Source of the DNA: an uncultured Muribaculaceae bacterium
GTDB taxonomy: Bacteria; Bacillota_I; Bacilli_A; RF39; UBA660
Reading direction: 5' to 3'
DNA: 64,000 nt
Assembly (NCBI GenBank): GCA_964630365.1
Contig: CAZVUP010000001.1
Span: forward strand, 3,816-67,815
A program made the translations under genes and the position numbers. Positions 37,285 to 56,165 of this stretch are shown piece after piece. Every line of letters starts with the position of its first letter. Within the stretch, counting starts at the first letter, position 1. The notes under the pieces are model-generated. The model worked only from the letters and a program-made list of their open reading frames with translations, ran no database searches and was not told the DNA's origin.

Positions 37285-37310
37285 ATAAAAAAAGAAGCTA
37301 TTTCGCTTCT
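37285..37310 (-). terminator. Terminator overlapping the spoVS stop
   Basis: AGAAGC/GCTTCT stem followed by a T-run on the minus strand. Confidence 0.5.
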
Positions 37311-37596: not shown

Positions 37597-37622
37597 AAAA
37601 AAAAATATGTCAAAAGACATAT
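37597..37622 (-). terminator. Terminator after the VanW-family gene
   Basis: ATATGTC/GACATAT stem followed by T8 on the minus strand. Confidence 0.6.
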
Positions 37623-38848
37623 TAATCTTCAGAATACCATGTAGTAGCAATAACACTATTATCAACTTCTACTCCATCTTTCCATTTATGCAAATATGTA
37701 CGATATCCTCTAACTCCAATCTTTACAGATTCTGTTGTATATTCATACCCATCTTTCGCATTACTATTTGACCAAAACTCAACATGAGCATTACCATTTT
37801 CAGAATATGCTTTAATATATATAGGATATTGATAAGTATTTTTAAACTGCATATCAACACACCAACCACTACTATAACTTGCAACAGTGGCATCAAGTCC
37901 ACCATCAATATAAAGACTCTTTTTCTTATGGGGATAACGTTTAACTATCTCTAATCCACCAAGCAAAGCTGCATTATAGGTTGTAGTTGCAATCTGACAT
38001 ACACCATTACCAACAAATTCATAATAAAAGACATATCCTTGTTTATTAAATGGACCAGCTTTATCACAATAACTAAATACTTCCCCAGGTTCAACAATAG
38101 TACCATTAATATATCCAAGTGCCGTATTCAAATTAATATTTCTCATATAAGTATTAGGCATAAATGGCGTTACAGCAGCAGATGTAAGAGTATCAATCTT
38201 AGCATAATTTTCATTTCCAACAGGTTGAACACTATTACCAACAAGTTCAACCACACTAGGACTAACTTCATTTGAAAAAGTTGTTTTAAGCGCTTTAATA
38301 CTTTCATCAATATTCAAATCATATCCAGCTGATCCGCCATTATAAGAAACACCATTAGAAGTATCAAAATATCCATTTACAACATCAACATGAGCAGCTA
38401 CAGCAATTTTATCAAAAACTTGCTTCAACATATCATCATTTACCTTATAAATTGCATTAAATACTTTTTTCTGCTTTCTATTTATAATTCTAATTTTTTT
38501 ACTATAATTTAAACTCTCTTGATATTTTTTTATTTGTTCAATAGTTTTTTCATCATCAATAGTAATTCCTAACTCATTTAATTTATAATTATACTCTACT
38601 CCATTAGCAACAAGTTTAATTGGTGTAGACAAAACTTTATAACTATTTGCTTCTAACGTTACTTTTGCACCATCAAAAGAATTAGAAGATAAATTAATAT
38701 CTCCAACATAAATTCCCGGAAGAACCATATTATTATATTTCTTTAACATGTTTGTATTATAAATAATAAGTCCTACATAAGCCAAAATCAAAATACATAG
38801 TAAAGAAATAATAATTATTAATTTATGTTTACTATCAATTTTTTTCAT
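37622..38848 (-). CDS. VanW-family protein
   Basis: N-terminal TM. VEPGEVFSY...GVCQIATTTYNAALLGGLEIVKRYPH...GLDATV...D.QFKN VanW signature. Confidence 0.8.
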   Translation of the reverse strand: MKKIDSKHKLIIIISLLCILILAYVGLIIYNTNMLKKYNNMVLPGIYVGDINLSSNSFDGAKVTLEANSYKVLSTPIKLVANGVEYNYKLNELGITIDDEKTIEQIKKYQESLNYSKKIRIINRKQKKVFNAIYKVNDDMLKQVFDKIAVAAHVDVVNGYFDTSNGVSYNGGSAGYDLNIDESIKALKTTFSNEVSPSVVELVGNSVQPVGNENYAKIDTLTSAAVTPFMPNTYMRNINLNTALGYINGTIVEPGEVFSYCDKAGPFNKQGYVFYYEFVGNGVCQIATTTYNAALLGGLEIVKRYPHKKKSLYIDGGLDATVASYSSGWCVDMQFKNTYQYPIYIKAYSENGNAHVEFWSNSNAKDGYEYTTESVKIGVRGYRTYLHKWKDGVEVDNSVIATTWYSED

Positions 38849-39768
38849 TACTCCACAACTCTTTTTATTTCTTTTAATATTCTCCTATATCCATCTTCAT
38901 TAAGATAAATACCATTTTCCGTATAATCTTCCTTTAATTCATCATTATCACTTATAAATGAATAAACATCTAAATAATTAACATCTTTCTCCTCAACAAG
39001 TCCTTCAATTTTTTTATTCAAAGAACTTATTAATTCATTATCAATACCATCATCTAAAATATCATCATCAAAATCATCAACATTTTTATTTATAGGATAA
39101 ATAGATTCAACATATATCTTAGCATATGGTCTATTTTCTTTTATTCCATCAATTATTTTTCCAAGGTTTTCTATAAGTTCATCTTCAGATTTGCCATCAT
39201 TTAAATCATTTATACCTAACTGAAGGAATACAATCGATGGATTATATAAATAAATCTTATTTTTCATATCATCCAAAATATCATCAGTAGTATAATGATC
39301 ATCTGCTTCTTTTACATAATGATAATCAACATCATCAAAAGAAAACTTTTCAGTATAAAAATCACCCACAAACAAATAATTATCATCTATTATTTTTTCA
39401 GGTTCCTTTTCTTTCTCTTCTACAACAATTTTCTCTTCACTTTTTTCTTTTTCAGTAGATTTAAAAAAGTTATGCTTTACCAAAAAAACAATTATTATAA
39501 CAATTACAAATAATGTACCTAATAAATAGAAAAAATGTTTAATTAAATCCCAATTAATATTCGAATGTTTTTTTTCTTTATAAAATTTCTCTTTTGATAC
39601 CTTAGAACTCTTAATTTTTTTATCTAATCTACCCTCTAAAAAACTAGTATCTAAACTATCATAATCATTAAGACGATCTTTATCAATCCTAATTCTCGTT
39701 GTCTGCTCTAATTCTTTCTTACTTTTTCTAGCTTTATTATCGTTATAAGGTTTACTACTTTTTGCCAT
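38848..39768 (-). CDS. Membrane-anchored SGNH/GDSL-like protein with a substituted catalytic triad
   Basis: Block III LGINDL is present. Block I reads VGDFY (Ser to Phe). Block V reads NGIYLNEDGY (Asp to Asn, His to Tyr). Confidence 0.55.
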   Translation of the reverse strand: MAKSSKPYNDNKARKSKKELEQTTRIRIDKDRLNDYDSLDTSFLEGRLDKKIKSSKVSKEKFYKEKKHSNINWDLIKHFFYLLGTLFVIVIIIVFLVKHNFFKSTEKEKSEEKIVVEEKEKEPEKIIDDNYLFVGDFYTEKFSFDDVDYHYVKEADDHYTTDDILDDMKNKIYLYNPSIVFLQLGINDLNDGKSEDELIENLGKIIDGIKENRPYAKIYVESIYPINKNVDDFDDDILDDGIDNELISSLNKKIEGLVEEKDVNYLDVYSFISDNDELKEDYTENGIYLNEDGYRRILKEIKRVVE

Positions 39769-39830
39769 ACAATCAACCACTTTCTACATCATTAACATTA
39801 TAGCAAATTATTAATAGATAAAAAAGATAA

Positions 39831-39861
39831 AAAAGAAAAAACGTATGAATTTTCATACGTT
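39831..39861 (-). terminator. Terminator after the 559-aa cargo gene
   Basis: ACGTATGA/TCATACGT stem followed by a T-run. Same sequence as the hairpin at 41624-41653. Confidence 0.7.
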
Positions 39862-41539
39862 AAGCCAATGGATAAATTTGATAGGGATTAGAACTACTCC
39901 CATTACCTTCTATAATTATTGTATTAGGATCTAAATACAATGTCGGCCAAATGTTAAAAGCAGAAGATACATTACTATAATTAGCAGATGAATTATTAAC
40001 AATATACCAAGCATTGGTTGCACCACTTTGTCCAGGAGTTATTGTCCATGTTGAATTGTTACTTTTTATCCAAGAAGAATTGGCACATGAAGTATATAAG
40101 GCCATCCAATATATTTGATGATTACAATTTGATAAATCTGCACTATAATAATAATCCGTTGGATACATTAATGCCACTTTTCCAGTCCAAGAAGTATCAT
40201 TACCACTATAAATAGATCCATTTCCATGCTCATAATAATACATATCACTAATCGAAACAAGAGCCAAATTTGGACTTGTAAAATATAAAGTTTCATCAGT
40301 AATGAAATTTCTTGTATCATCATTTTGCAAACCAGTAGTAGTAAAATCACAGTTTGATGTTGCAGCATTATCACCACTATAACACTTACCAGAAGCAGCA
40401 TTCCAATACAAACTACCACCAACACTAGCAGTTTCAAAACCAGAATTCAAAAGCTTATTGGCAGCAGATGTTTTCCAATTATTTGTCGAAGTGTCCCAAG
40501 AGTACTGACCAATAGGTGATTCTCTAAGTAATTTCACTTTACCGCCAAATACTCCTATTATCCGCCATTTTTCACAAGTACTATCACTTTGATTATCATA
40601 GTCCTGGCAATTAAAGTATATATAGTTACTAGGATTAGTGCCATAGTATCTTAAGTCTCCACCATTAGCACTATTTGCTCTACCACCAAACCTGTCATTA
40701 ATAATACCTAAAGATGTAGCTCTATTATATGTGTAATTGCCATTTTTAACCGTATTTATAACAGGATTTGCATAAATACCACTATAAAGTCCATCATCTA
40801 TATATCGGCTTAATGGCCAAAATTTTATTGTCACATCTGATTCTACACTATCTATTTTTACATATCTCTCCTTAATATTATATTGTGATCCAGCTACAGT
40901 ATAATTGTCAGTATTCGTAAAAGTTATACTGGCTCCACCAATTGGCACTCCAGATTGTATAAACTCCATATGATTCATTGCATATGTTTTATAATTATTT
41001 CCTCGAGGAGCATTTACATAGGTAATTGTATGATATCCTCGAAAATCAAATTCTAATAATAAATCAAAAGTTGTGTTATTCGCATCATATGCTCCATCAG
41101 CATATTTCATAGTAATATTAAATGTTTTTACTGCGCCTAAACTACATTTACTACTGTTATTATCATCACATAATGGTTCTGTCATTTGATAATTAGACAC
41201 TTCACAAACTAAATTACTAGGACAACCAGTAATTTCAGCAATTCCCATATTTTGATTTCCAATATTTGTAACTTCAACTGTATAAGTAACTGTTGAATCA
41301 GAATTAGGTAAAGAAAAATTTGGCGTAATATTATTAACATTATAATCTTCACTTATAGCTAACCCATCACTAGTACTACCATTAGGAGTAATATTAGTTA
41401 TACGTATATCTTTAATAATTCTTATTTGAGCACCTAAATCTCTCATCATCAAATTTCTATTCATTGCTGAAAAACCAACACTTATAGAAACTACAATAAG
41501 AAACACATAAATATAAACATACTTTATAAAATGCTTCAT
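39860..41539 (-). CDS. Secreted cargo protein 2 (shared leader/TasA-like N-module plus adhesin-like C-terminal half)
   Basis: Leader ...VGFSAMNRNLMMRDLG. N-module STVTYTVEVTNIGN. C-half CEKWRIIGVFGGKVKLL...W.TSAANKLLN...WTITPG...WPTLYL (the pattern I recall as DUF6273-like). Paralog of 41652-43334. Confidence 0.6.
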   Translation of the reverse strand: MKHFIKYVYIYVFLIVVSISVGFSAMNRNLMMRDLGAQIRIIKDIRITNITPNGSTSDGLAISEDYNVNNITPNFSLPNSDSTVTYTVEVTNIGNQNMGIAEITGCPSNLVCEVSNYQMTEPLCDDNNSSKCSLGAVKTFNITMKYADGAYDANNTTFDLLLEFDFRGYHTITYVNAPRGNNYKTYAMNHMEFIQSGVPIGGASITFTNTDNYTVAGSQYNIKERYVKIDSVESDVTIKFWPLSRYIDDGLYSGIYANPVINTVKNGNYTYNRATSLGIINDRFGGRANSANGGDLRYYGTNPSNYIYFNCQDYDNQSDSTCEKWRIIGVFGGKVKLLRESPIGQYSWDTSTNNWKTSAANKLLNSGFETASVGGSLYWNAASGKCYSGDNAATSNCDFTTTGLQNDDTRNFITDETLYFTSPNLALVSISDMYYYEHGNGSIYSGNDTSWTGKVALMYPTDYYYSADLSNCNHQIYWMALYTSCANSSWIKSNNSTWTITPGQSGATNAWYIVNNSSANYSNVSSAFNIWPTLYLDPNTIIIEGNGSSSNPYQIYPLA

Positions 41540-41623
41540 GTTATCCTCCGCTTACAAATATTTTGTGTACAATTTTGTATTCAAATAAATTGTAGCAAAA
41601 ATATCAATAACATACAATATAAA

Positions 41624-41653
41624 AAGAAAAAAACGTATGAATTTTCATACGTT
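41624..41653 (-). terminator. Terminator after the 560-aa cargo gene
   Basis: Identical ACGTATGA/TCATACGT hairpin and T-run. Confidence 0.7.
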
Positions 41654-43334
41654 ATGCTAGAGGGTATATTTTATAAGGTTTAGCATTTGTACCTTCACCA
41701 TCTATAAATATTGTATTAGCATATAAATACATTGTAGGAAGTACTGAATATCCTTCATAAACATCATTATAATTAGCTTTACTAGAAGATTCAACAATCC
41801 ACATATTACCTGTACCACTATACCCAGGGGTAGTAACCCACATTTTATTACTTTGTTTCATCCACGATGTATTAGCACATCCTGTTCCTAACCAATAAAT
41901 ATTAGCCGTACAATTACTTAAATTAGCACTATAATAATAGTCAGTTGCATAAGGGAGCATAACTTTTCCAGTCCATGATCTTTCAGCACCATTTCTTAAA
42001 CTTCCATTATTATGTTCTTGATAATACATATCACTTATAGATAAAAGAGCATTTTGAGGACCGGTAAAGTAAACGGTTTCATCTGATATAAAATCTTTTG
42101 TATCCCCATCTCTTAAACCATTACTTGTAAAACTACAATCAACTTGTTTAACACTTTGAAAAAGCCCAGCCTCAGTTGTATAACATTTACCACTACTACG
42201 ATTCCAATATAAACTGTTATTAACACTTTCACCACTATACCCTGAATTTAAAAGCTTTCTCATTGCTGATGTTGACCAAACATTACTACTTGGATCATAA
42301 GAAAAAGTCCCAATACTTGTTGTATTAATAATCTTAACTTTACCATTAAAAACACCTATTATTCGCCACTTTTCACAAGTACTATCTGATTGATTAGAAT
42401 AATCACTACAATTATAGTAAATATAATTATTAGCACTTGTTCCATAATATCTGACATTTCCACCATCAGGATCACTTGCTCTACCACCTTCTCTATCATT
42501 AATAAGGCCTAAAGAGGTAACTCGATTATAAGTATAAGAAGAAGAGCCGATAGTACCTCCATTAGAAACCGTACTTTTAGCACCATCAGCATATAATTTA
42601 TTTATATATTCACCAAGTGGCCTAAATCTTATTGTTATATCAGAATTTACAGATGCTGCATTAATTGTTAATGTTTTGTTACTCAAAGAATAATTAGTAC
42701 CATTAACTAGTGTTCCTCCATCATTAGTAATAGACATTCCACCAGCTGGATCATATGCTTGAATAAAATTAATATTATCCATAGCATATGTCTTATAATT
42801 ATTTCCACGAGGAGCATTTACATAAGTAACTGTATGATATCCTCGAAAATCAAATTCTAATAATAAATCAAAATTTGTGTTATTAGCATCATATGCCCCA
42901 GATGCATATTTAACAGTAACATCAAAAGATTTTACTGCCCCTAATTTACATTTTCCACTAGTATCACAAATAGGCTCTGTCATAGTATATCCAGAAACCT
43001 CACATACTAAATTACTAGGACATCCTGTAACATTAGCTATTCCCATTTCTACATTTCCAAAATTAGTAACTTCAATTGTATAACTAACAGTTGAATCTTG
43101 ATTAGGTAAACTTAAACTTGGCGTTACATTACTAACATTATAATCTTCATTCATAGCTAACCCATTACTTGTACTACCGCTAGGAGTAATACCAGTAACT
43201 CTTATATCTTTCTCAATTCTTATTTGAGCACCAATATCACGCATCATTAAATTTTTATTCATTGCCGAAAAACCAATAGTAAGTGTCAGAACTAAAAACA
43301 AAATAACAAAAGGAACAAATTTAAATCTTTTCAT
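41652..43334 (-). CDS. Secreted cargo protein 1 (paralog of 39860-41539)
   Basis: Leader ...IGFSAMNKNLMMRDIG. Same domain order. Blocks such as FDLLLEFDFRGYHT.TYVNAPRGNNYKTYAM are identical between the copies. Confidence 0.6.
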   Translation of the reverse strand: MKRFKFVPFVILFLVLTLTIGFSAMNKNLMMRDIGAQIRIEKDIRVTGITPSGSTSNGLAMNEDYNVSNVTPSLSLPNQDSTVSYTIEVTNFGNVEMGIANVTGCPSNLVCEVSGYTMTEPICDTSGKCKLGAVKSFDVTVKYASGAYDANNTNFDLLLEFDFRGYHTVTYVNAPRGNNYKTYAMDNINFIQAYDPAGGMSITNDGGTLVNGTNYSLSNKTLTINAASVNSDITIRFRPLGEYINKLYADGAKSTVSNGGTIGSSSYTYNRVTSLGLINDREGGRASDPDGGNVRYYGTSANNYIYYNCSDYSNQSDSTCEKWRIIGVFNGKVKIINTTSIGTFSYDPSSNVWSTSAMRKLLNSGYSGESVNNSLYWNRSSGKCYTTEAGLFQSVKQVDCSFTSNGLRDGDTKDFISDETVYFTGPQNALLSISDMYYQEHNNGSLRNGAERSWTGKVMLPYATDYYYSANLSNCTANIYWLGTGCANTSWMKQSNKMWVTTPGYSGTGNMWIVESSSKANYNDVYEGYSVLPTMYLYANTIFIDGEGTNAKPYKIYPLA

Positions 43335-43440
43335 ATAATATCTCCCGAAACTTTGATAGTAAATAATTTTTACTAATCAAAAATTATAAATGCCAATTAT
43401 TATAATATCATAATAATTATAGCATTAGTTTCACTAACTG

Positions 43441-43470
43441 AAAAGAAAAAATGCATGAATTCCATGCATT
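43441..43470 (-). terminator. Terminator after the cassette-B accessory gene
   Basis: ATGCATG/CATGCAT stem followed by a T-run on the minus strand. Confidence 0.6.
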
Positions 43471-43504
43471 ATTCTAACGTATAAAATATAAAAAAAAGGA
43501 TAAA

Positions 43505-44968
43505 TTATTTATTACCCTCTTCTAAATCTACTTCTTTAATTGTTAATAAATATAATTCTTCTTCATGACTAATAAAGAAATAACACTTCTGATGCTTATT
43601 AACAACATAATACTTAATTGGTAATTTTAAATTATCACGTACATCTAATAATTCTTGAAATTTACCAACTTTAATAACATTAATATTATCATTAATAACA
43701 GGAGCTGTTTCAGTCTCAACAATCAAACGATCATATTCTTTTAAAACTTTAGAAACATATTTATCATAATTAGATTTTTTTACCAAAACATACCTGATTA
43801 ATCTAACCAGTTTAATTGTAAAATATATCATTCCAACAAAACAAATAATTGCTAAAAGTGCAAAGAAATAATTAGTAACTGCTAAATGTTCAGTAGCTAA
43901 AACCTGCTTATTTTCATTAACCTCTTTATAATCTAACTTAACACTAATAGCTTTTTCAGATAGTGGGATATTTATAAGCATCTCACTATTGCCTTGTATA
44001 GGATATTTTACATCATATTTACTATTATCTTGTCTTACTCTAAAATAAACAAATAAATTACTCTTTGTCTCAAGACCATAACTAGTTCTAAAATTATTAG
44101 CTAAAGCATTATAGTAATTATAATCAATATTTATACTTTTTCTAATATTATGAGAAGAACTATTGCCAACCTTTTCTGTTACTGGTTCTTGTAAAACATA
44201 TTCTTTTTCAAAAAATAGATTTTTTTCACTATTATCAGTAATTTGAAGCTTAGCAACTATATCATATGTTAAATCAAGATCAACCATCTTATCAATATTA
44301 AAATTATAATCAAAATCTACATTAATATGATCAATAAGATTAGCTACATATAACATGTCTTTTCCTAAGTGATCCGTTTCATAGAAATTATTCTCTTTTA
44401 AATAAACTTGATAATCTAAGTTACTTTTTTCATTATAACTAATTGCATCACCATTAATTGTTGAAAAAGATTTTAGAATAAAGAATAAAGTCAAACCAAA
44501 TGATAATAATAACAATACTACCATTTTTCCTACACGATATTCATAACTAACATATTTTCCTTCATTTGGAATATGATTTTCAACTTTAGTTACATTTCCA
44601 CTATCTTGAAGTTTATTACTAGTATCAACACTTTCTTTTTCAGCTATTTGTTCAGATATCTCTGCAAGACTATCATCATTTGAAACAACATCATTAGAAT
44701 CCGGACTAAATGCATTAATAGACTCTTTTATCTGTCTTACTAAATCTTCAGATGTAATAGTTTCATCCATATAATCATCAACAATTTTATCAACATCTAA
44801 ATTGTTTTCGCTGGAATTCATATCAATTTCTTCAAGAGCTTTATTTATCTCTTTAACAAGATCTTCAGAACTCATAGTCTTTTCCAGTTCGTCATCTTTT
44901 CTAAGTGTCTCTTCAAGAGAATTCAACAATTCATTTGTCTGTTTCTTTTTTTTCTTGTGCCTAGACAT
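43505..44968 (-). CDS. Bitopic accessory membrane protein B (DUF5305-like) with an acidic cytoplasmic N-extension
   Basis: NEKSNLDYQVYLKENNFYETDHLGKDMLYVANLIDHINVDFDY aligns with 49406-50434. Order is TM, about 200-aa ectodomain, TM, cytoplasmic tail. ATG 44968 with GGGAGG upstream. Confidence 0.55.
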   Translation of the reverse strand: MSRHKKKKKQTNELLNSLEETLRKDDELEKTMSSEDLVKEINKALEEIDMNSSENNLDVDKIVDDYMDETITSEDLVRQIKESINAFSPDSNDVVSNDDSLAEISEQIAEKESVDTSNKLQDSGNVTKVENHIPNEGKYVSYEYRVGKMVVLLLLSFGLTLFFILKSFSTINGDAISYNEKSNLDYQVYLKENNFYETDHLGKDMLYVANLIDHINVDFDYNFNIDKMVDLDLTYDIVAKLQITDNSEKNLFFEKEYVLQEPVTEKVGNSSSHNIRKSINIDYNYYNALANNFRTSYGLETKSNLFVYFRVRQDNSKYDVKYPIQGNSEMLINIPLSEKAISVKLDYKEVNENKQVLATEHLAVTNYFFALLAIICFVGMIYFTIKLVRLIRYVLVKKSNYDKYVSKVLKEYDRLIVETETAPVINDNINVIKVGKFQELLDVRDNLKLPIKYYVVNKHQKCYFFISHEEELYLLTIKEVDLEEGNK

Positions 44969-44985
44969 CCACAAAAGCCTCCCTT

Positions 44986-46113
44986 CTATAATTCATTTAA
45001 CCAAACAGTTGGCATTCCTATAAAAGGAATTTTATGATCAACTGTTCCTATTATCATATCTTCAGTTATTACCCAGTTATCTTCATCATCATTACTATCA
45101 CCTTTACTATAGAAATAATATTTACCATTATCCTCTATAATATTAACTAAACGATGAACAATAATAACTCCCTCATATCTATAAGCAATTACTTGACCAG
45201 GTTTTAATTTCCCTATATGCTTATCGATCTTTTCAATAATAACTACATCACCTCGAGAAATATTAGGTTCCATACTACCACTTGCTATCGCAATTGCATA
45301 ATAATGGAAATAACCCGAAGTAAAATATACTAATACTATTGTCAACAAAACAGGCACAATATATGCACCTAAAAGCTTTTTATTATAATTTCTAGTTAAG
45401 AATTCATCATAATCTTTTGATAAAAATTTATGAACTCTAAATAAGAAACCAATAGGTAACAATAATTGAATAATAGATGTCAAATATTCATCTGGATTAG
45501 GTATTATTGGAAATACATAACGATATAGTCCAATTACTAAAGCAAAGAAAATTATAGGCTTATAACCAATTTTTAATGTTAAATAACAATAAACAATATT
45601 GCTTGCTATGACTGGTAATAAAGTCAATGCTATAAATATAAAGACTTTATAATTTGAAGAAAAATCAGATGCAGTAATTGCTACTGTAATATCTAAAAAT
45701 ATAAATAGCAACCAAGTCATTACATATAAAAGCCTATTACCTTCAGCTTTAGACATAATCATATAACGAAGTATTTCTTTTAAAACAATAGTAAAAGTTA
45801 TTGGTAATATAAATGTTTTTAATCCATATAAATTATAATAGCCATCAACTTTTGCAAAGCTTATAAAGATTCCCAAAAGATAAAACAAAATAAAGAATAT
45901 TATCAAATAAATAATAGTATCTAAAATAACATCTTTCGCATATCTATGTTTATCTTTTTCAAAACCAAATAAAAATTTAAAAGCTATAAGAACTACTATA
46001 AGAAATAATAACATTTTATATCCTGATAATATATTCCATACAAAACTATTTAGAATCAAGAATAAAAAAATTAGTACTTCAAAAGTCAATAAACGACTAT
46101 ACCCCTTTTTCAT
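44986..46113 (-). CDS. Polytopic membrane domain fused to a SipW-type (ER-type S26) signal peptidase, copy B
   Basis: About 250 aa with about 7 TMs, then IASGSMEP (Ser), IVHRLV (His), SKGDSNDDEDN, IPFIGMPTVWLNE. Confidence 0.7.
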   Translation of the reverse strand: MKKGYSRLLTFEVLIFLFLILNSFVWNILSGYKMLLFLIVVLIAFKFLFGFEKDKHRYAKDVILDTIIYLIIFFILFYLLGIFISFAKVDGYYNLYGLKTFILPITFTIVLKEILRYMIMSKAEGNRLLYVMTWLLFIFLDITVAITASDFSSNYKVFIFIALTLLPVIASNIVYCYLTLKIGYKPIIFFALVIGLYRYVFPIIPNPDEYLTSIIQLLLPIGFLFRVHKFLSKDYDEFLTRNYNKKLLGAYIVPVLLTIVLVYFTSGYFHYYAIAIASGSMEPNISRGDVVIIEKIDKHIGKLKPGQVIAYRYEGVIIVHRLVNIIEDNGKYYFYSKGDSNDDEDNWVITEDMIIGTVDHKIPFIGMPTVWLNEL

Positions 46114-46153
46114 GCTATCCTCCTAAATAATCTTGTTAAAATACATTATAGTA

Positions 46154-46180
46154 GGCACAACCGACATAGTCGATTGCGCC
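46154..46180 (-). promoter_or_regulatory. GC-rich intercistronic stem-loop between the TasA-like B and peptidase B genes
   Basis: 11-bp stem. It is perfect (with two G-U pairs) only in the minus-strand RNA and has two mismatches on the plus strand. The downstream sequence is only weakly U-rich. Confidence 0.4.
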
Positions 46181-46201
46181 ATCTATAAAAAATTCTAAGT
46201 A

Positions 46202-46855
46202 TTAATCTACAGAACCATATAGTAAAGAAACATCACCAAAAGCTACAGTGAAATCACCATCAGCTCTATCTCCACCTTCAGCATAAGTAATAGTTACTAC
46301 AACATCTTCACTAGCACCAACTGCTAATGCATGACTAGATATTGAACCATTTGATGAAGTATATGCAGATCCATCACCAACTTTAACACTGATAGAAATA
46401 TCATCACAAGCAGCGGTAACTAAAGCAGCAGTTGTTCCATTACCTGGAGTACAAACTTTAGCAGCAGCAGGACTAGAACCATTAACATTATTAAATGTTA
46501 CTCCATTTAAATAAGCTTGTAATTCACCAGTATTCTTAGCCTTAAAAGTATAAGTAGCAGTTTGTCCTGGTGCAGTAAAATTAGCTTTTAAACCAGTGAT
46601 ATCATGGTCACTATTGTTAATAGTAGCAGTATCAGCAGTAAAACCACTTGCTGGAGATAATGTTGGAGTTACAGAAGTACCATTTTCAGTACTATTAGTA
46701 AATACAACATTGAAAGTATTTTGATCAGGGCTAACAGCAGCACTAGACTTAATATTCAAAGTTTGAGAAAATGCTGCAAAACCTAATGATAAACCTCCAA
46801 CAGCTAACAATAAAGCAACAATTGCCATAACTTGAGCTCTTCTATTTTTTTCCAT
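46202..46855 (-). CDS. TasA/camelysin-like secreted protein B (candidate major subunit)
   Basis: Leader ...LSLGFAAFSQTLNIKSS (compare TasA GGTWAAFNDIKS). Ala/Thr/Ser/Gly-rich beta module with PGQTATYTFKAKNTGEL. AGGAGGTG RBS. Confidence 0.6.
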   Translation of the reverse strand: MEKNRRAQVMAIVALLLAVGGLSLGFAAFSQTLNIKSSAAVSPDQNTFNVVFTNSTENGTSVTPTLSPASGFTADTATINNSDHDITGLKANFTAPGQTATYTFKAKNTGELQAYLNGVTFNNVNGSSPAAAKVCTPGNGTTAALVTAACDDISISVKVGDGSAYTSSNGSISSHALAVGASEDVVVTITYAEGGDRADGDFTVAFGDVSLLYGSVD

Positions 46856-46980
46856 AGATTACACCTCCTTTTCCTTATTTCAAGCATATGATGACATTTC
46901 TTTTATTCTTTTTAGAGAGATAACAATCCCCATATCATGTACTTTCAATACATACCTATTGTCATATGCTATCTATGAAA

Positions 46981-47009
46981 ATTCTAACATCAAAAGCAGT
47001 AAAAATCAA
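46981..47009 (-). promoter_or_regulatory. Candidate sigma-A promoter of cassette B
   Basis: TTGATT, 17 nt, (TGt)TAGAAT on the minus strand. Confidence 0.4.
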
Positions 47010-47034
47010 GTGTATACAAATAATTTTTATATGC

Positions 47035-47066
47035 AAAAAAACTTTACAAATTTTTTGTAAAGTTTT
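47035..47066 (-). terminator. Terminator ending cassette A
   Basis: AACTTTACAAA/TTTGTAAAGTT palindrome immediately after the stop codon, with T-rich flanks. Confidence 0.6.
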
Positions 47067-47067
47067 C

Positions 47068-49416
47068 TTATTCAGATTTTATAAAGTGCATTCCCGTCCA
47101 CACTTGAACTCTATCACCAGGATTATAATAAGTATTTTCAGAAGTACTATACCATCTTCCAGTAATTAATTTAGATAATGTATAATAATCCCCTTCTTTA
47201 ACCAAATAATTACTTTTAATCAACATATTGTCCTGATCAGTAGTAACCATCCAATATCTTTCATTATTTTTCATTATTGGCGGTAACAACATATTATCAG
47301 CTATAATACTATTTTTAATATAATCTTTAAATAACGCTAAATTCGTTCGATTGTCATTAAGAAGAATTGCTAACTCGCCTGCTCTAAATCCTTTATACAT
47401 ATAATATGGTAATACATCTTCTAAGTATTTATAATCAATAGTTTTAACTACTCTATCATTACTCCATGTAATATCATCATTAAACTTATATAAATTCGTA
47501 ATATCCGTATATCTATCTGTCGTTATAAAATCATCAGATACTATATTATAATATCTAGTTGACGCTACAAAATAATATTTTTTATTCTCATTAACCACCT
47601 CAATATTAGTAACACTAACAGTAGTTAACTTATCACCATTTAATTTCTTAACATTAGTACCAATATGAAAATGTTCTCTATCCTTAAAATTAACAAACTT
47701 ATTCTCATCGGCACTAAAGAATGAATGATCATTAAAAATACTAATAGTTGAATTATCACTAAAAGTAATTTTTATATATGAAGGAGTTGTATAAGCTTTT
47801 TCAATCCATAATGGATATTCTGGAACAAGTCTACCTAATTCATAGCTCCATACCATTAATAAATCATCATATTTAATATCTTCTATATTCTTATACTTAC
47901 CATTAGCTAGTAAAACTTTTGTACCTTCAATTAAGCAACTACCACCTTCAGCAGTTATAACAACATCACCAACAACATTTGGAATCGATACTCGACCATT
48001 ATTATATGTATAACTACCAGTACCAAGAGTTTGTCCGCCCATTGTAACAGTAATAGACTCAGGTAAAGTATTATTACCACTAGCTGTCATTGTACCAGTA
48101 TAAGTTTGATTACGATTTACTGTCGAAGTATTAGGACAATTCAAATTAGTACAACTAAAACTAACATTAAAAACCCATTTATAAGCATCCGATGTGCTAC
48201 GTGAAGCGTGCCCACGACCAGTCGTTGCTGAATTAACATAATCGCTACCACTATTACCACTTTCATCTGTACCACTAACAACAAAATAATATGTTCCCTC
48301 ACTAAGACCAGTAACAACTAAACTCTCACTATCATCACTAGTATTCATAGTTTTAACAACACTTCCACTATTATTAAAAACAGTCACCGTATAGAAAGAA
48401 ATATTTGTATCATCCTCACCACTCCAAGTAACAAGAACAGATCCAACATCATCTTGAATAACAGCATTAACATTACTAATGAAAGGTGGTGTTGTATCAA
48501 CATAAACAACTGTCTTATCAACCAATAAAGAAATTCTACCAGCATTTATTGCACTATCACCAGTAGGAGTAACATACACAGTAACACGCTCTTCATCAAC
48601 ATTATATTCATTACCTGCTAACTCTTTTACATAAAAAGTATAATTAGAATCTCCTCCAGCTGTAATAGTCTGTGTTGGATATGGATTTCCATTAGCATCT
48701 ACTATTTGAAAGTGATCACTACTAATTGAAATATCAAAAGTACTATCATAACTATAAGTACTTAAAACCCTAACAGAAAACTCTGCTGTATCAGGATTAC
48801 CCCTTAAATCACCTGTCGTTGGAGCATTCATAGATGCCAAAATATGAGCCGTTGTATCTTCTGCTACTTGTGGCGCAAAATCTCCATTAATAACAAAAGT
48901 ATCAGTATCTTGCTCACTAGATGGATTAGTAAAAGTAAACGATACCGTAAACGTCTTTGACTCCCCTGAAGATATAACATCACCAGCGGCAATACCAGTT
49001 ATTGTATATCCTACATAAGAAGAATCAATAAGTTCTCCATTACTCTGTCTATTAACAGTCATTGGATAACTAAGACTCGTATACACAAAATCATAAAAAC
49101 TATCATTTTGAATAGTAACATCAAACACTGCAACATATGTAGCACTCTGATCAGCAACAGTCGTAAATTTAAGTCCAAAATCAATAGAATTACCATTATT
49201 AATTACAGGATTAGAAATAGCATTAGTGTGCGTTCCTTGAGTAACACTCTTAATATAAATATCTCCCCCAGCTTTAAAGATAGATCCCCCACTTAAATTC
49301 AAAATTTGCCCATAAAGAGCAAATCCCACAGTCATAAAAAGTAATACAAAAACAGCAAAAAAAGAGATTATAACGCTGCTTTTTAATCTTTTCTTCTCAA
49401 CATACCTATTCATCAT
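47068..49416 (-). CDS. Large secreted cargo protein: shared leader/TasA-like module, Fn3-like and Ig-like domains, Hint domain, unknown C-terminal domain
   Basis: Leader ...VGFALYGQILNLSGG. Fn3-like PPFISNV...VTWSG...GTYYFVVSGTDESGN. Hint block A GSCLIEGTKVLLANGKYKNIEDIKYDDLLMV (Cys codon 47935-47937). Block B-like ISIFNDHSFF. ATG 49416/49413 after GAGGA. Confidence 0.65.
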   Translation of the reverse strand: MMNRYVEKKRLKSSVIISFFAVFVLLFMTVGFALYGQILNLSGGSIFKAGGDIYIKSVTQGTHTNAISNPVINNGNSIDFGLKFTTVADQSATYVAVFDVTIQNDSFYDFVYTSLSYPMTVNRQSNGELIDSSYVGYTITGIAAGDVISSGESKTFTVSFTFTNPSSEQDTDTFVINGDFAPQVAEDTTAHILASMNAPTTGDLRGNPDTAEFSVRVLSTYSYDSTFDISISSDHFQIVDANGNPYPTQTITAGGDSNYTFYVKELAGNEYNVDEERVTVYVTPTGDSAINAGRISLLVDKTVVYVDTTPPFISNVNAVIQDDVGSVLVTWSGEDDTNISFYTVTVFNNSGSVVKTMNTSDDSESLVVTGLSEGTYYFVVSGTDESGNSGSDYVNSATTGRGHASRSTSDAYKWVFNVSFSCTNLNCPNTSTVNRNQTYTGTMTASGNNTLPESITVTMGGQTLGTGSYTYNNGRVSIPNVVGDVVITAEGGSCLIEGTKVLLANGKYKNIEDIKYDDLLMVWSYELGRLVPEYPLWIEKAYTTPSYIKITFSDNSTISIFNDHSFFSADENKFVNFKDREHFHIGTNVKKLNGDKLTTVSVTNIEVVNENKKYYFVASTRYYNIVSDDFITTDRYTDITNLYKFNDDITWSNDRVVKTIDYKYLEDVLPYYMYKGFRAGELAILLNDNRTNLALFKDYIKNSIIADNMLLPPIMKNNERYWMVTTDQDNMLIKSNYLVKEGDYYTLSKLITGRWYSTSENTYYNPGDRVQVWTGMHFIKSE

Positions 49417-50434
49417 AATCCTCTTTTTCAATTACATATTCCCAAGCCATATGTTCAAATATAATAACAAATCTTGTTCTATTCTTTTCTTGAACATAAT
49501 TAATTGGCGTTCTAACGTCATTATAAACTACTAACAAATCATCAAAAGAACTAACTTCTACTAAATTAAATTTACTTAGTTTTAATTCTTTTACTTTTAC
49601 CATAATACTACCATAATCATTAGTAATCTTAATAACATTTCCATTATAACTATCTAATTTCTTATTCTTAGCTAACCATACAAAATGCTTAAACACAACA
49701 TAGAATAATCCAAAGATATCTATTAAGAATAATATCTTAAAGATAATATGCTTTAAATCATTAAGTCTTACTTTACGAGTTATTTCTTTTTGTTTATTAT
49801 TTTGATCAGTATTAATAACACCCTCTACTGCTACTTTAGATAAAGGTATTTTTACACTTATTTCAGAATTAACAGGAATAGTATCTTCAGCACTAACTTG
49901 TGGTTTACCATCAACAACAAGTGCAAGTTTCAAGAATCCATCACTACTCAAATTATAAGTATCAACAAATGATAATAATAATTCATTATATTTCTGATAA
50001 TCAATATTAATTGACTCAGATATTTCACAATCTTCTTCACCAAATAAATATTTAGTTCTGATATCAGTTAAATTAAAACTCTTCTCCCAATAAGTACCAA
50101 CTTGATTATTTGTCTTTTCAGCACTAACTGTTGCTACTATATGATATTTTAATTCACCATCAACAGGAGTATTAAATAATACTTTATATTTATAATCAAC
50201 AACTAAATGATCTATCAAACTAGTAATATAGGTTTTATCTTTACCAAGAAAAGGTTGATCAAAGAAATTATTTTCTTTTAGATATACTTTATAATCAATA
50301 CTATTATCTTCATTGTAAGAGTATTTTATATCTTGGCAATCATTGAAACCAATGGAATAAAATACTAAACCAAGAATGACTAGTACTGCAACATATACCC
50401 AAAAATAATCTGTTGACCTTTTCTTTACTAGCAC
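49406..50434 (-). CDS. Bitopic accessory membrane protein A (DUF5305-like)
   Basis: NEDNSIDYKVYLKENNFFDQPFLGKDKTYITSLIDHLVVDYKY. TMs at about residues 10-28 and 229-250. GTG start with AAGGAGTG upstream. Overlaps the next gene by 11 nt. Confidence 0.55.
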   Translation of the reverse strand: MLVKKRSTDYFWVYVAVLVILGLVFYSIGFNDCQDIKYSYNEDNSIDYKVYLKENNFFDQPFLGKDKTYITSLIDHLVVDYKYKVLFNTPVDGELKYHIVATVSAEKTNNQVGTYWEKSFNLTDIRTKYLFGEEDCEISESINIDYQKYNELLLSFVDTYNLSSDGFLKLALVVDGKPQVSAEDTIPVNSEISVKIPLSKVAVEGVINTDQNNKQKEITRKVRLNDLKHIIFKILFLIDIFGLFYVVFKHFVWLAKNKKLDSYNGNVIKITNDYGSIMVKVKELKLSKFNLVEVSSFDDLLVVYNDVRTPINYVQEKNRTRFVIIFEHMAWEYVIEKEDYDE

Positions 50435-50439
50435 CTATA

Positions 50440-51594
50440 TCACTCCTTTCTTAAAAATTCATTAAACCAAACCGTTGGCCACCCTATATATTTACAAACA
50501 TAGATAACTTTACCAATAATATCTTCTTCTTCAATTAAATAACCATCTTCATTGTTATTGGCATCTCCTTTAGTATAGAAGAAAACTTGTTCCTCATATT
50601 CAACCTTTTTAACAACCCTATGAGCAATAATTTTACCACTCTTTTGATAGATTAATATTTCCCCAACTTCAGTATCTTTAGGATTTTTCTTATCAACCAA
50701 TACTGCATCTCCCTTATAGTAAACAGGTATCATTGAGTTTGATGCTATCGCAATCAATTGATATCTAAGTATTCCAGAAACTAGTATTGTTAAAATAATT
50801 AAAGCTACAACTAAAGGTCTAGTCATAAACCCAACACTAAATTTATTCTCTTTTCCTCTTCTTCTATCTAATCTATTTATTTTAACGATATATTTTCTAT
50901 CTGCTAAATAAATAACAAAAGGTATTAATATATGCATAGTCCCATATAAATACTCATTTAAATTAGCGAAGAATGGAAATATATATATATAACATTTAGC
51001 CAATACCTTGAATACTAAACTAGGTAATAGACCAAAATTATATGTCATATAACTACATAATAATTCCTGTGCAATTATAGGAAAAATAGTTATAGAAATA
51101 AAAATGAACCATTTAAGTTTATTATCAAGAAATCCTATATTCATCTCTAATAATATATTCAATATAATTAACAAAATAGTTAATATAACAATTTCACTTT
51201 TATTTATATAAGTACTTTTAATAAGAGTATATCTAAAAACCTCTTCAACCACTAAAAATATAAGTACAGGAATAAATCCATTTAATACTTTATCAACATC
51301 AAGTGAAAATGCTGTTTTAGAAAATCCAATTAAAATTCCAAGCAAAAAACAAATAAAGAAAAATCCTACAAAAACAGAAATTTCTATTTTTATAGCTGTC
51401 TCTCTATCAAAAGAATTATCCTTCTTATAACCTAAGAAGTAAATTGCCGGAATAAGTAAAATTACTAAAAAGCATACAATTACAAAGCTTCTACCAAGAG
51501 GATTATTATAGTTAGACATTAAAAGGAAATATAATACTTCAAATATTAATAAAGCTATCTCAAATATATAAATCCTTTTAAGTCTAACCTTCAT
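50440..51594 (-). CDS. Polytopic membrane domain fused to a SipW-type signal peptidase, copy A
   Basis: About 260 aa with about 7 TMs, then IASNSMIP, IAHRVV, TKGDANNNEDG, YIGWPTVWFNE. Confidence 0.7.
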   Translation of the reverse strand: MKVRLKRIYIFEIALLIFEVLYFLLMSNYNNPLGRSFVIVCFLVILLIPAIYFLGYKKDNSFDRETAIKIEISVFVGFFFICFLLGILIGFSKTAFSLDVDKVLNGFIPVLIFLVVEEVFRYTLIKSTYINKSEIVILTILLIILNILLEMNIGFLDNKLKWFIFISITIFPIIAQELLCSYMTYNFGLLPSLVFKVLAKCYIYIFPFFANLNEYLYGTMHILIPFVIYLADRKYIVKINRLDRRRGKENKFSVGFMTRPLVVALIILTILVSGILRYQLIAIASNSMIPVYYKGDAVLVDKKNPKDTEVGEILIYQKSGKIIAHRVVKKVEYEEQVFFYTKGDANNNEDGYLIEEEDIIGKVIYVCKYIGWPTVWFNEFLRKE

Positions 51595-51618
51595 AATCAC
51601 ACCATCTTTATATTAAAA

Positions 51619-52197
51619 TTAAGCTACATCTTCATAAAGAAAAGATCCATTAATTGTAATTGTTTTATCTTCTGTTGGTAAATCTGCTTGTGGAATATCT
51701 TCTTTATTTTTATAAGTAATAGTTAATGTTACATCTTTTGTAGCACCATTTTCATTAATTACATTAGATAAACCTGTTGCATTAGTAGTATAATCTGCTC
51801 CATCATAAGTAAGTTTACACTCAGCAAATTTTTGTTGATCAGCTGTTAAACCACTAAAATTAATAGTAGTAAGTTTTGCTTTAATAGTACCATCATTAAC
51901 AACTTTCCACTTTGCAACATAAGTATCACCTGGTTTATTCAAAGTTACATTGAAAGTAAAATCAGTATTTGTTAAACTACTTGATTGAGCAACATCAGCT
52001 GTACCACTTTCTTGTAAAGTTCCTGATTTATAATGAACATTCCAAGCATTTTTGAAAACAGCTTTACTTGAAGTACCACTAGCTCCACCACCGATATTTA
52101 ATGTTGTAGAATATAATGCGAAACCTACAGCCATGAATAATAGTACTGCTACCAATAAAATAATAGTCTTTCTTTCACTCTTTTTACTTTTTCTCAT
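51619..52197 (-). CDS. TasA/camelysin-like secreted protein A (candidate major subunit)
   Basis: Start MRKSKKSERK (ATG 52197, AGGAGG 7 nt upstream). Leader ...VGFALYSTTLNIGGG. FTFNVTLNKPGDTYVAKWKVVNDGT resembles TasA NLSNLKPGDKLTKDFQFENNGS. Confidence 0.6.
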   Translation of the reverse strand: MRKSKKSERKTIILLVAVLLFMAVGFALYSTTLNIGGGASGTSSKAVFKNAWNVHYKSGTLQESGTADVAQSSSLTNTDFTFNVTLNKPGDTYVAKWKVVNDGTIKAKLTTINFSGLTADQQKFAECKLTYDGADYTTNATGLSNVINENGATKDVTLTITYKNKEDIPQADLPTEDKTITINGSFLYEDVA

Positions 52198-52324: not shown

Positions 52325-53149
52325 TTATTTTTTGTTGTATATATATACTTTATCAACTTCAACCATTTCATCTTGACCGGTGTATTCTTCAAATTTTATG
52401 TCTTTCTTATGCGGAGGTGCATAAACAGCTACTTGCCCATGCTCAGTTAAATGAGGTTGTACCTTATCATCTAAAAAACTAGTTAATGTAGTAAATTGCT
52501 CATTACTAAAATAGTCTGTTATATTCGACATAAAAACAGCATCATATTTTTCATCAGAACTAAGTTTAGAAATAAAGTCATGAAATGTAGCATGATGTAA
52601 TCTAACATCTACCCTTTCCAAGTTATCCCTTGTAACATAATAGTTTTCATCAAAAGCAAAACATCTAAGTCTACTATCAATAAAGAATTGTAAGAAGATA
52701 AATCTAGATTTATTATTTTTTAAATTTCCGCTTTGATATAATGTATCCCAAAATATTAGTGAATCTAAGTCCAACTCTTCTCTAATTTTTAAATATATAT
52801 TCAAATCAAATATCTCAGAAGGATCTCTAAAACCAAAAAAGTATGCAAATTCATCTTGACTTAAAGTTTTTAAAGCCGCTAATTTTAACTTTATCAAATA
52901 TATCTGAAATCTATTTTTATCAAAAGCATCTACTTCTTTTGCTCCACTATAAACAGCTTGTAAGATATGATCTCCACTGCCAGCAACAGTTAATACTTTC
53001 GCACCATCTAACTTAAACTTATCATAATAAATTGATAAAGCTTCATTTGTTCGAATATAAATTTTTCCATAATTTTTTGGATATTTCTGAAAATAAACAT
53101 CATTTAACATATTTATAGCAACTTCAATATCTCGTGGTAATTCCTTCAT
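52325..53149 (-). CDS. DUF3419/BtaA-like SAM-fold protein, array member 7
   Basis: IYIRTNEALSIYY, KVLTVAGSGDHILQAVYSGAKEVDAFDKNRF, KLKLAALK, FWDTLY, YDAVFMSNITDY, VAVYAPP. Confidence 0.6.
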   Translation of the reverse strand: MKELPRDIEVAINMLNDVYFQKYPKNYGKIYIRTNEALSIYYDKFKLDGAKVLTVAGSGDHILQAVYSGAKEVDAFDKNRFQIYLIKLKLAALKTLSQDEFAYFFGFRDPSEIFDLNIYLKIREELDLDSLIFWDTLYQSGNLKNNKSRFIFLQFFIDSRLRCFAFDENYYVTRDNLERVDVRLHHATFHDFISKLSSDEKYDAVFMSNITDYFSNEQFTTLTSFLDDKVQPHLTEHGQVAVYAPPHKKDIKFEEYTGQDEMVEVDKVYIYNKK

Positions 53150-53162
53150 AAGGCACCCCCAT

Positions 53163-53975
53163 TTATAATTTACTTTTTATATAAACTTTTTGCTTATCTA
53201 AATAAGTATCTTCAGTATAGTCTTCGTATTGTACTACATCACTCAGAGTCGGTACATATACTGCCATTTTGCCACCTGTTTCTAAGTTTTTACTTAAAAC
53301 ATGCAATACATAATCCTTAAATTCATTCTTTTCTACAAAAGTTAACCAATCATAAATATTAGATAGAAATATTGCTTTATAAGAATCTGTAAGCACTCCA
53401 CCTAAATCAAATAAATCACTCAAATAATAGCCAATAGATACATCATCTATTTTTTCCCTAATAGAATAATAATTTGCACTATCCCTGTAACTATCTATCC
53501 CCAAATCATGACGTTGTGGTCCAAAAACAATTCTATGAATATTTTTTATATTACCATCTTGATATAAACTATCCCAAAACAACTGAGCATCATCAGCTAA
53601 ATAATCAGAAAACTTCTCATAAATTCTTAGGCTCATAAAATCAAAAGCTCCATTATTTAATGAAAAAAAGTTTTCAAAATCTTCATGACTTAATGTTTTT
53701 ATAGCAGCAACCTTTAATTTAACAACATATAAAGCAAATCTATTATGATCAAACACATCTACTTTTTTTGCTCCTTCATGTACTGCTTGCAAAAGATGAT
53801 CTCCACTTGCCGCAACTGTTAAAACTTTTTCACCAGAAATTGAAAATTTTTTATAATAAGTTGATATTTGCTCATTTGTATTTAAAAAAGCTTTTGAATA
53901 AGTAGACGGAAAAATATAATTTATATCATTTAAAGTTCTAAGCGCAACTGCAATATCTTTTTTTACTTGATTCAC
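53163..53975 (-). CDS. DUF3419/BtaA-like SAM-fold protein, array member 6
   Basis: Same motif set (FLNTNE, VLTVAASGDHLLQAV, VDVFDHNRF, KLKVAAIK, FWDSLY, AIFLSNIYDW, MAVYVP). GTG start with GAAGGGGT SD. Confidence 0.6.
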   Translation of the reverse strand: MNQVKKDIAVALRTLNDINYIFPSTYSKAFLNTNEQISTYYKKFSISGEKVLTVAASGDHLLQAVHEGAKKVDVFDHNRFALYVVKLKVAAIKTLSHEDFENFFSLNNGAFDFMSLRIYEKFSDYLADDAQLFWDSLYQDGNIKNIHRIVFGPQRHDLGIDSYRDSANYYSIREKIDDVSIGYYLSDLFDLGGVLTDSYKAIFLSNIYDWLTFVEKNEFKDYVLHVLSKNLETGGKMAVYVPTLSDVVQYEDYTEDTYLDKQKVYIKSKL

Positions 53976-53977
53976 TT

Positions 53978-54802: not shown

Positions 54803-54804
54803 AA

Positions 54805-56022: not shown

Positions 56023-56114
56023 TAAACATATCCCCTCTACTAGGTAATTAATAAAAAATAGAAATAGAATAAACTATATATAAAATATAACTACCCCTCT
56101 TTTTATTGCTAGCT

Positions 56115-56143: not shown

Positions 56144-56165
56144 GAAAAACAGAAACTAATCTAAA

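Follow-up and report, generated by a model that had tools for sequence, protein, structure and literature searches.

The 64-kb window analysed here (64,000 nt of contig CAZVUP010000001.1, from an uncultured low-GC gut member of the Bacilli) carries, at positions 39860–52197 of the minus strand, a locus of nine genes, called A to I below. Its two tandem, paralogous gene sets probably each specify a secreted fibre, of the surface or the matrix, that belongs to the TasA superfamily and resembles the AbpX type most closely. The gene set of the window is that of the abpX loci, which occur in archaea and bacteria and encode a dedicated signal peptidase I with ten transmembrane helices together with a DUF5305 protein (bioRxiv 10.64898/2026.01.04.697558). 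AbpX ('archaeal bundling protein X') belongs to the TasA superfamily and polymerizes by N-terminal donor-strand complementation; its loci also encode AbpX-like minor subunits and tip proteins, the tips being co-assembled with the major subunit by AlphaFold 3 (AF3) (bioRxiv 10.64898/2026.01.04.697558).

The region has a G+C content of ~28 % and every gene of the locus lies on the minus strand, to which all locus coordinates refer. In order of transcription, the first cassette comprises A (51619–52197), a short secreted protein of 192 aa and putative major fibre subunit, B (50440–51594), a signal peptidase I of 384 aa, C (49406–50434), a DUF5305 protein of 342 aa and putative partner of the peptidase, and D (47068–49413), a large secreted subunit of 781 aa. 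The second cassette consists of E (46202–46855), again a short secreted protein (217 aa) and putative major subunit, the signal peptidase I F (44986–46113; 375 aa), the DUF5305-like protein G (43505–44968; 487 aa), the secreted cargo subunit H (41652–43334; 560 aa) and its paralogue I (39860–41539; 559 aa), which has the same architecture. Amino acid identities by BLAST between the paralogues are 31 % for B and F, 30 % for C and G (E 2e-31 to 3e-32) and 59 % for H and I, and on this basis the locus is made up of two tandem paralogous cassettes, A-B-C-D and E-F-G-H-I. The five secreted ORFs on the minus strand (A, D, E, H and I) were found where the initial annotation had placed them; the two peptidases, the DUF5305 genes and the paralogous cassettes had been overlooked in that annotation, and D, counted there among the long cargo-bearing proteins, is not optional cargo.

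Terminator-like hairpins follow G (43450–43470), H (41632–41653) and I (39840–39861). Those directly 3' of the H and I stop codons are identical over 22 nt (AACGTATGAAAATTCATACGTT, then a T-run), and the H/I duplication therefore copied the terminator too. H and I are each probably monocistronic. The longest possible D ORF, with a TTG start, is 787 aa long and overlaps the end of C by 26 nt (49406–49431). With the ATG start chosen by gene callers, which gives the protein of 781 aa, the overlap is 8 nt, suggesting that C and D are translationally coupled, and comparably short C/D overlaps occur in related loci, such as L007 (7791–9014 and 9001–11376).

The pattern GF[AS][AL].{3,5}L[NM][ILM] was found in a six-frame translation of the whole window only in A, D, E, H and I, and in all five it directly follows the N-terminal hydrophobic core. 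The motif that the initial annotation had described in these five proteins is thus real, but its regular expression was not quite correct, as A and D read GFA-LY... and not GFA-A-.... The five N-terminal regions can be aligned, with G26, F27, L34, N102 and a few other columns invariant. A logo was built from three subfamily sets (A-, D- and H-type; 70 sequences), 65 of which carried the motif; it reads hydrophobic core, G, F/Y, A/S, x, Y/F, x, x, x, L, x, I/L, x, G, and its first G is invariant in the A- and D-type sets and present in 12 of the 13 H-type sequences. In the wider family described below, the motif pattern was matched by 128 of the 149 best representatives (out of 8,710), and G[FY]A was retained in those listed as not matching.

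The position of the predicted cut comes from an alignment with AbpX. When a profile of 15 short A-type proteins (alignment A2, which includes E, 27 % identical to A) was aligned with AbpX, S30-x-T-L-N-I paired with AbpX S3-E4-T5-L6-S7-L8 and Y29 fell on W2, so that mature residue +1 directly follows G-F-A. The donor strand of AbpX runs from W2 to I12 of the mature protein (bioRxiv 10.64898/2026.01.04.697558). Cleavage is accordingly predicted directly after GF(A/S), which would occupy positions −3 to −1, and G at −3 with A/S at −1 fits the signal peptidase I rule. Because the AbpX alignment puts the cut there, the second half of the motif, x-(Y/F)-x-x-x-L-x-(I/L), is read as what is probably the mature N-terminal donor strand for the next subunit. 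The whole motif had been assigned earlier to a class-specific leader; the hydrophobic core and G-F-(A/S) do belong to a leader, whilst the rest is probably mature donor strand. Residues 28–47 are unstructured in the AlphaFold model of A, and the N-terminal segment of the AbpX monomer has been reported as unstructured (bioRxiv 10.64898/2026.01.04.697558).

The leader of A would comprise residues 1–27 (52117–52197), followed by the putative donor strand LYSTTLNIGG (residues 28–37; 52087–52116). The corresponding segments are 49318–49413 and LYGQILNLSG (49288–49317) in D, 46775–46855 and AFSQTLNIKS (46745–46774) in E, 43266–43334 and AMNKNLMMRD (43236–43265) in H, and 41468–41539 and AMNRNLMMRD (41438–41467) in I. 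Position 2 of the putative strand is aromatic in three of the five proteins (Y in A and D, F in E), and position 4 is T in A, Q in D and E, K in H and R in I. The sequence F-S-E-T-L is present in some members of the wider family, for example P0234.

Two other readings of these N-termini were considered. The h-regions are long and strongly hydrophobic, as would be expected of uncleaved signal anchors; the five would then be type II membrane proteins, the juxtamembrane motif would have another role and the peptidases would process something else. This is highly improbable in view of the G at −3 and A/S at −1, which are almost invariant in the sequences examined, of the peptidase that each cassette has of its own, and of the alignment, beginning exactly after the motif, with the mature N-terminus that experiments have defined for AbpX. 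A G-F after a charged N-terminus also superficially recalls the prepilin site G|F(T/S)LIE, and Ig-like and fn3 domains recall sortase pilins, yet in the window proteins the hydrophobic stretch precedes G-F, and neither the locus nor the proteins yielded a prepilin peptidase, a pilus ATPase, a sortase or an LPXTG signal. That they are type IV pilins or sortase-assembled Gram-positive pilins is therefore scarcely conceivable.

Behind the putative donor strand the five proteins share a module, which extends over 42819–43265 in H (strand included), to ~48844 in D and to ~41015 in I. Direct BLAST comparison of the mature parts gave weak values (E 0.001 for A and E, 0.004 for A and D and 0.13 for E and I, in a tiny database), and for this reason family alignments were built: in addition to A2, these comprised 10 H-type N-modules (A3) and 21 D-type proteins (A5). 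Profiles from which the signal peptides had been removed matched each other in hhalign at 94.7 % (E 6e-8) for A-type against H-type, at 95.2 % (E 2.9e-8) for D-type against A-type and at 93.1 % (E 3.2e-7) for D-type against H-type; the A-type and H-type profiles still matched at 85 % (E 6e-6) when the donor strand was removed as well. The β-rich module of ~150 aa that had been proposed for these proteins is therefore homologous across the A-, D- and H-types without any contribution of the leaders (93–95 % in hhalign), and the strand pairs quoted in support of it (LNKPGDTYVAKWKVVNDGT and others) fall in the best-conserved block of the family alignments, with N101 and G103 invariant in A2.

The predicted structures agree with this. 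The AlphaFold models of A and H are β-rich, with a predicted local distance difference test (pLDDT) score of ~90 in the N-module; overall values were 80.7 for A (core ~90) and 82.1 for H. From the profile homology and the overlapping Foldseek neighbour lists, the modules of A and H would have the same fold. Nothing but the module is present in the short proteins A and E, as had been claimed, and the long ones carry further domains. Pfam and NCBIfam scans of the five proteins returned no usable family, and no model in either library covers the module.

Relationship to the TasA superfamily was detected in two ways. A search with the A2 profile against all PDB sequences gave AbpX as best match (9sj2_C, E 8.9e-4; 9rhp_A, E 0.027). 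In a Foldseek search with the model of A, the sole match at E ≤ 1e-3 was the TasA fibre solved by cryo-electron microscopy (8aur_A; E 4e-4, prob 1.0), and the CanA cannulae stood at ranks 16 and 25 of the same list. The camelysin family PF12389 (Peptidase_M73) was matched weakly in only two of the 15 A-type members (best E 0.0043).

Each cassette encodes its own signal peptidase I. B matched TIGR02228 (archaeal-type signal peptidase I) with 84.5 bits and F with 76.4 bits (cut-off 51.85), F also matched Peptidase_S26 (29.9 bits vs 22.9), and both matched the SipW model. The catalytic Ser, His and Asp motifs are S-N-S-M285, A-H-R-V324 and G-D-A-N343 in B, and S-G-S-M278, V-H-R-L319 and G-D-S-N338 in F. 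By a crude Kyte–Doolittle count made without a topology predictor, both have eight to nine hydropathy peaks N-terminal to the catalytic domain, or about nine transmembrane helices each. By these profile matches and motifs, B and F are dedicated multi-pass signal peptidases I of the SipW/archaeal type, one per cassette. C matched PF17231 (DUF5305) with 32.2 bits (cut-off 29); G had no Pfam match of its own and is called DUF5305-like from its 30 % identity to C. Hydropathy places two transmembrane helices in C (residues 11–29 and 230–248) around an extracytoplasmic domain, followed by a cytoplasmic tail, and G has the same topology (152–170 and 369–387) with an additional acidic cytoplasmic N-terminal extension of ~150 aa; in both proteins ~200 extracytoplasmic residues lie between the helices. 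DUF5305 is the 'peptidase accessory' protein of abpX loci (bioRxiv 10.64898/2026.01.04.697558), and a partner role is also proposed for it in the work on haloarchaeal Tat-fimbriae (Tafi); by analogy C and G are putative partners of the signal peptidases.

Three characterized systems can be compared with the locus. AbpX is a short acidic β-sandwich subunit with an N-terminal amphipathic donor strand (x-aromatic-S-x-T-L-x-I/L), likewise found in the window, and both kinds of locus encode a multi-spanning signal peptidase I, DUF5305 and extra proteins bearing the module. Unlike the abpX loci, that of the window belongs to a low-GC gut Bacilli host, comprises two tandem cassettes and has no SLH or LPXTG anchor and no adjoining cyclic di-GMP or two-component genes; its conserved Hint-bearing subunit and lectin-like cargo subunits are both absent from the AbpX preprint. 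Within the Bacillus subtilis operon tapA-sipW-tasA (PDB 8AUR), an operon-encoded signal peptidase of the ER/archaeal type also processes a secreted fibre subunit whose mature N-terminus (A-F-N-D...) is the donor strand, and an accessory protein is encoded as well. SipW, however, has only two transmembrane helices, there is no DUF5305 protein, and TapA is unrelated to D, H and I, whereas the accessory proteins of the window bear the same module as the major subunit. The haloarchaeal Tafi (TafA/C/E, TafD peptidase, TafG DUF5305) are donor-strand filaments of major and minor subunits, in which TafD is experimentally required for subunit processing and filament formation and TafG is the DUF5305 protein of the cluster. 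They differ in Tat export, in a two-domain peptidase with four transmembrane helices and in their archaeal host, and no sequence similarity to Tafi was detected in this analysis.

Genomic context was followed through D. A scan of the GTDB species genomes with a five-sequence D-type alignment revealed full-length D-type genes in 26 species-level metagenome-assembled genomes (MAGs) labelled Bacilli, Erysipelotrichaceae, 'Tenericutes', 'Mycoplasma sp.' or Mollicutes and derived from goat, sheep, rumen and human gut; a further locus (L034) held only a fragment of the Hint region. The closest D-type locus was that of Bacilli bacterium RGIG2470 from goat jejunum (93 % identity). The order A-type gene, peptidase (374–399 aa), DUF5305 gene and D-type gene was intact in 23 of the 26 loci, and on the strength of this conserved order D is a core member of a four-gene operon present in about two dozen species. 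Cassette 2 was also found, among these loci, only in the closest relative. The first residues after the predicted cut appear to co-vary between A-type and D-type proteins, residue +1 being identical in 12 of 24 loci (6.1 expected) and residue +2 in 15 of 24 (7.7 expected), as might be expected if the two used one peptidase or one acceptor groove.

Taken together with the known systems, these data suggest the following mechanism. A, D, E, H and I would be exported by Sec, and the peptidase of the cassette (B or F), probably with its DUF5305 partner (C or G), would cut after G-(F/Y)-(A/S). The cut would expose the N-terminal amphipathic strand x-(Y/F)-x-x-x-L-x-(I/L)-x-G, which would enter the open β-sandwich of a neighbouring subunit, so that A and E would polymerize by donor-strand complementation in the manner of TasA, AbpX and Tafi. 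D, H and I, with the same strand and module, would join the fibres as nucleator, anchor or tip subunits. In H and I an enlarged C-type-lectin-like domain would be displayed, probably as an adhesin; in D, Ig and fn3 spacers would be combined with a Hint domain whose Cys and His should cleave the Gly492–Cys493 bond or form a thioester there. We infer the polymerization of A and E and the co-assembly of D, H and I by analogy. The initial annotation had likewise proposed a shared assembly module with variable cargo, the short proteins being major subunits and the long ones minor or tip subunits, and this view is now partly supported, by homology, synteny and analogy.

Several observations weigh against a TasA/AbpX-type fibre. 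The match of the A2 profile to AbpX is barely significant, and the TM-scores of A with 8aur_A are low (0.32/0.28), for a query that included 47 non-core residues (signal helix and linker). At E < 0.1 none of the five secreted proteins matched PF12389, and A, E and the family members P0019 and P0024 did not match TIGR04088 (SipW-cognate signal) up to E 10. The H-type module is the most divergent and has no TasA match of its own, its profile giving only chance-level lectin matches among PDB sequences. Mature isoelectric points (pI) of 4.26–5.14 and Asp+Glu contents of 8.8–11.6 % are less extreme than the pI of ~4 and ~15 % Asp+Glu that serve as a criterion for AbpX. Position 2 of the donor strand is Met in H and I, and thus not aromatic, and the acidic residue at position 4 that binds calcium in AbpX is absent from all five proteins, which makes a calcium-bridged assembly doubtful. 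The permutation value for the A/D co-variation (p = 0.009) is uncorrected for phylogeny. Lastly, no LPXTG-like motif was found near the C-terminus of any of the five proteins, and no sortase or SLH anchor amongst the genes of the locus (within ~10 kb).

The absence of such anchors motivates a coupling role proposed below for the Hint domain of D. The module of D is followed by Ig-like, fn3 and further β domains, the Hint domain (residues 493–633; 47515–47937), which starts with CLIEGT, and a conserved C-terminal domain of 148 aa (47071–47514). About 40 full-length homologues (32–45 % identity) show the same architecture of leader, donor strand, module, Ig-like domain, fn3, further β domain and C-L-(I/V)-E-G-T; an additional partial match with 100 % identity is the D protein of the window itself. 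Of the domain types that had been listed for the long proteins (Fn3, Ig and Hint), two were recovered for D, fn3 by its detection in the D homologues and Hint by a profile of that region (A6), which matched the BIL/Hint structure 6y75_A (E 2.5e-6, profile positions 7–147) and several inteins; Pfam Hint matches all remained under the gathering score. The C-terminal part of D on its own had no relative among PDB sequences.

Cys493 and His563 are invariant in 21 D homologues. After the terminal L-T-T-D/E of the domain the residues vary (R, G, T, A, S), and a C-terminal His-Asn and a conserved +1 Cys, Ser or Thr are absent from the D-type Hint domains of these 21 homologues. Splicing is therefore unlikely and D differs in this from inteins. 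As in Hint/BIL and Hedgehog-type domains, both residues on which an N-S acyl shift depends, the N-terminal Cys and the block-B His, are retained within 493–633; from these residues it is plausible that such a shift occurs, with cleavage or transfer at the Gly492–Cys493 bond. The conserved domain after Hint recalls Hog proteins, in which Hint is followed by an adduct-recognition region. A polymorphic-toxin reading of D, in which a pre-toxin Hint domain would set free a toxin at the C-terminus, was rejected as unlikely; the C-terminal domain is conserved rather than variable and no candidate immunity gene was seen downstream.

A more speculative proposal is that the Hint domain of D serves as a covalent coupling device. 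Once D had been incorporated through its donor strand and module, Cys493 would form a thioester at the Gly492–Cys493 bond and the 148-aa domain, in the role of the Hedgehog adduct-recognition region, would direct the fibre-bound N-terminal fragment onto peptidoglycan, lipid or a host glycan. We consider this unlikely. If true, it would amount to sortase-independent anchoring of a TasA-type fibre or to irreversible attachment to a target, and it would explain both the missing LPXTG and SLH anchors and the retention of D in the operon core. No mention of Hint was found for fibre subunits of the TasA type; the term is absent from the AbpX preprint, and the broader literature was not searched.

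In H the module is followed by a small β domain (42615–42818) and by a C-terminal domain of ~320 aa (41655–42614), the latter lying at 39863–40822 in I. The initial annotation had noted an appended domain here, and a fold can now be suggested for it. The best PDB match of the H model in Foldseek was the IgA peptidase (IgAse) of Thomasclavelia ramosa (9qa6; E 6.6e-7, prob 1.0, 303 columns), and a lectin-like domain of the Legionella protein Lcl was also among the matches. The N-terminal domain of the T. ramosa IgAse, of 290 residues, is an enlarged C-type-lectin-like domain (PMC12237041). Judging from the aligned length, the match of H would be to this lectin-like domain, with which the C-terminal domain of H agrees in size and in its irregular α/β character. 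Unlike the T. ramosa enzyme, H lacks a metalloprotease domain and has no HExxH motif, and a profile of the full H family did not find IgAse by sequence. The fold match suggests that H and I probably display a carbohydrate- or ligand-binding head with the role of an adhesin.

The module is not confined to these loci. An impression that the family was rare, gained from a word-indexed search that had returned 25 relatives, was overturned by an exhaustive HMMER scan of 1.84 billion protein representatives at 50 % identity, in which the module profile detected 8,710 representatives at E ≤ 1e-3, 5,138 at E ≤ 1e-10 and 342 at E ≤ 1e-30. A search of other sequences with such a profile had been suggested in the initial annotation, and many of the proteins found do carry variable C-terminal cargo. 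In 37 of the 149 best representatives, which are 268–610 aa long, unrelated domains follow an N-terminal module, and the cargo domains included DUF285, BspA-type leucine-rich repeats (LRR), DUF4886, ALK/LTK glycine-rich, NAGPA and DUF6273.

The cargo of H is also found behind other N-terminal regions. Its C-terminal domain has more than 1,300 relatives, mostly proteins of 816 aa with two copies of the domain (P0032–P0145, e.g. P0108), which have a different N-terminal β region and a leader ending in GSTYAMFT(T/A)SAE. P0108 scores 15.3 bits on TIGR04088, just under the cut-off of 19, and the gene for the 816-aa protein is isolated, close to nusB/xseA, and has no neighbouring peptidase gene (loci L005 and L006). 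No homology of the N-module of these proteins to those of the window could be detected, and there is no peptidase in their locus; they were therefore taken as evidence of cargo shuffling only, and not of module homology. Since the module is combined with many cargos and the cargo of H with other N-terminal regions, the 'assembly domain plus variable cargo' design is, as judged from protein sequences, real and general.

One family member, P0229 (480 aa; locus L042), has three tandem fibre modules in a single chain. Its neighbours are fragments of DUF5305 and a pair of ~618-aa proteins, and it might act as a nucleator or represent a pre-linked oligomer.

The breadth of the cargo in the wider family (LRR, DUF285, glycosidase-like, lectin-like) is also what might be expected of dedicated sorting and processing without any fibre, in which the motif would mark substrates of the peptidase and DUF5305 protein, the N-module would be a mere stalk or quality-control domain, and the proteins would act as monomeric adhesins or enzymes. 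The weak similarity to TasA and AbpX and the monocistronic H and I, with their own terminators, could be read in the same way. We nevertheless regard this explanation as rather unlikely. A and E would have no function as stalks, because they consist of the module alone, and the segment after the cut aligns with the donor strand of AbpX and adopts no structure when A and H are modelled as monomers. Moreover, every characterized relative with this gene set (TasA, AbpX and Tafi) forms donor-strand fibres, and P0229, with its three tandem modules, also speaks against this explanation, so that assembly into donor-strand fibres is the reading preferred here.

Donor-strand fibres of the TasA type have of late come to light as a way of building biofilm matrices that is shared across domains of life. 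The general architecture was already published in January 2026, and the model of the initial annotation is not new in kind. What is new is a divergent branch in gut Bacilli that current domain libraries do not recognize, the sheer size of the module family, which has no annotation, the tandem cassettes, the lectin-like cargo and, above all, the conserved Hint-bearing subunit, which suggests a so far undescribed link between autoprocessing chemistry and the assembly or anchoring of fibres. Uncultured low-GC gut Bacilli of ruminants and humans would thus carry a compact version of the TasA-type system, and across the family the fibre module would act as a common carrier on which lectin-like, LRR/BspA, DUF285 and enzyme-like domains are displayed. 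With a model of the module and of its G-(F/Y)-(A/S) cleavage and donor-strand signature, surface proteins of gut metagenomes that are now hypothetical would gain an annotation in their thousands.

Directly upstream of A lie seven tandem paralogues of ~270–284 aa (52325–58625, minus strand) that match Pfam DUF3419 (PF11899), interrupted by an ORF of 120 aa (55660–56022). This array was found only in the closest relative, L008 (four copies), with one copy in L023, and hence does not belong to the core of the fibre system. Downstream of I, on the same strand, are ORFs of 310 aa (38848–39780; membrane-anchored, GDSL-type esterase-like), 408 aa (37622–38848; VanW-like) and 86 aa (37298–37558; SpoVS-like), all three assigned by eye, and genes with Pfam matches to PBP5/VanY are found upstream of the locus. 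If the by-eye SpoVS-like assignment is right, this gene and the upstream PBP5/VanY genes indicate that the host is a walled member of the Bacillota and no true mollicute, despite the labels of some of the MAGs. The sign of the GC skew flips at 60001–62000 (+0.09 vs ~−0.35 elsewhere), coinciding with a plus-strand VanY-like gene at ~59940–60836 (mapped from L001); this gene and an ORF at 24001–24633 were the only two plus-strand genes noticed in the window.

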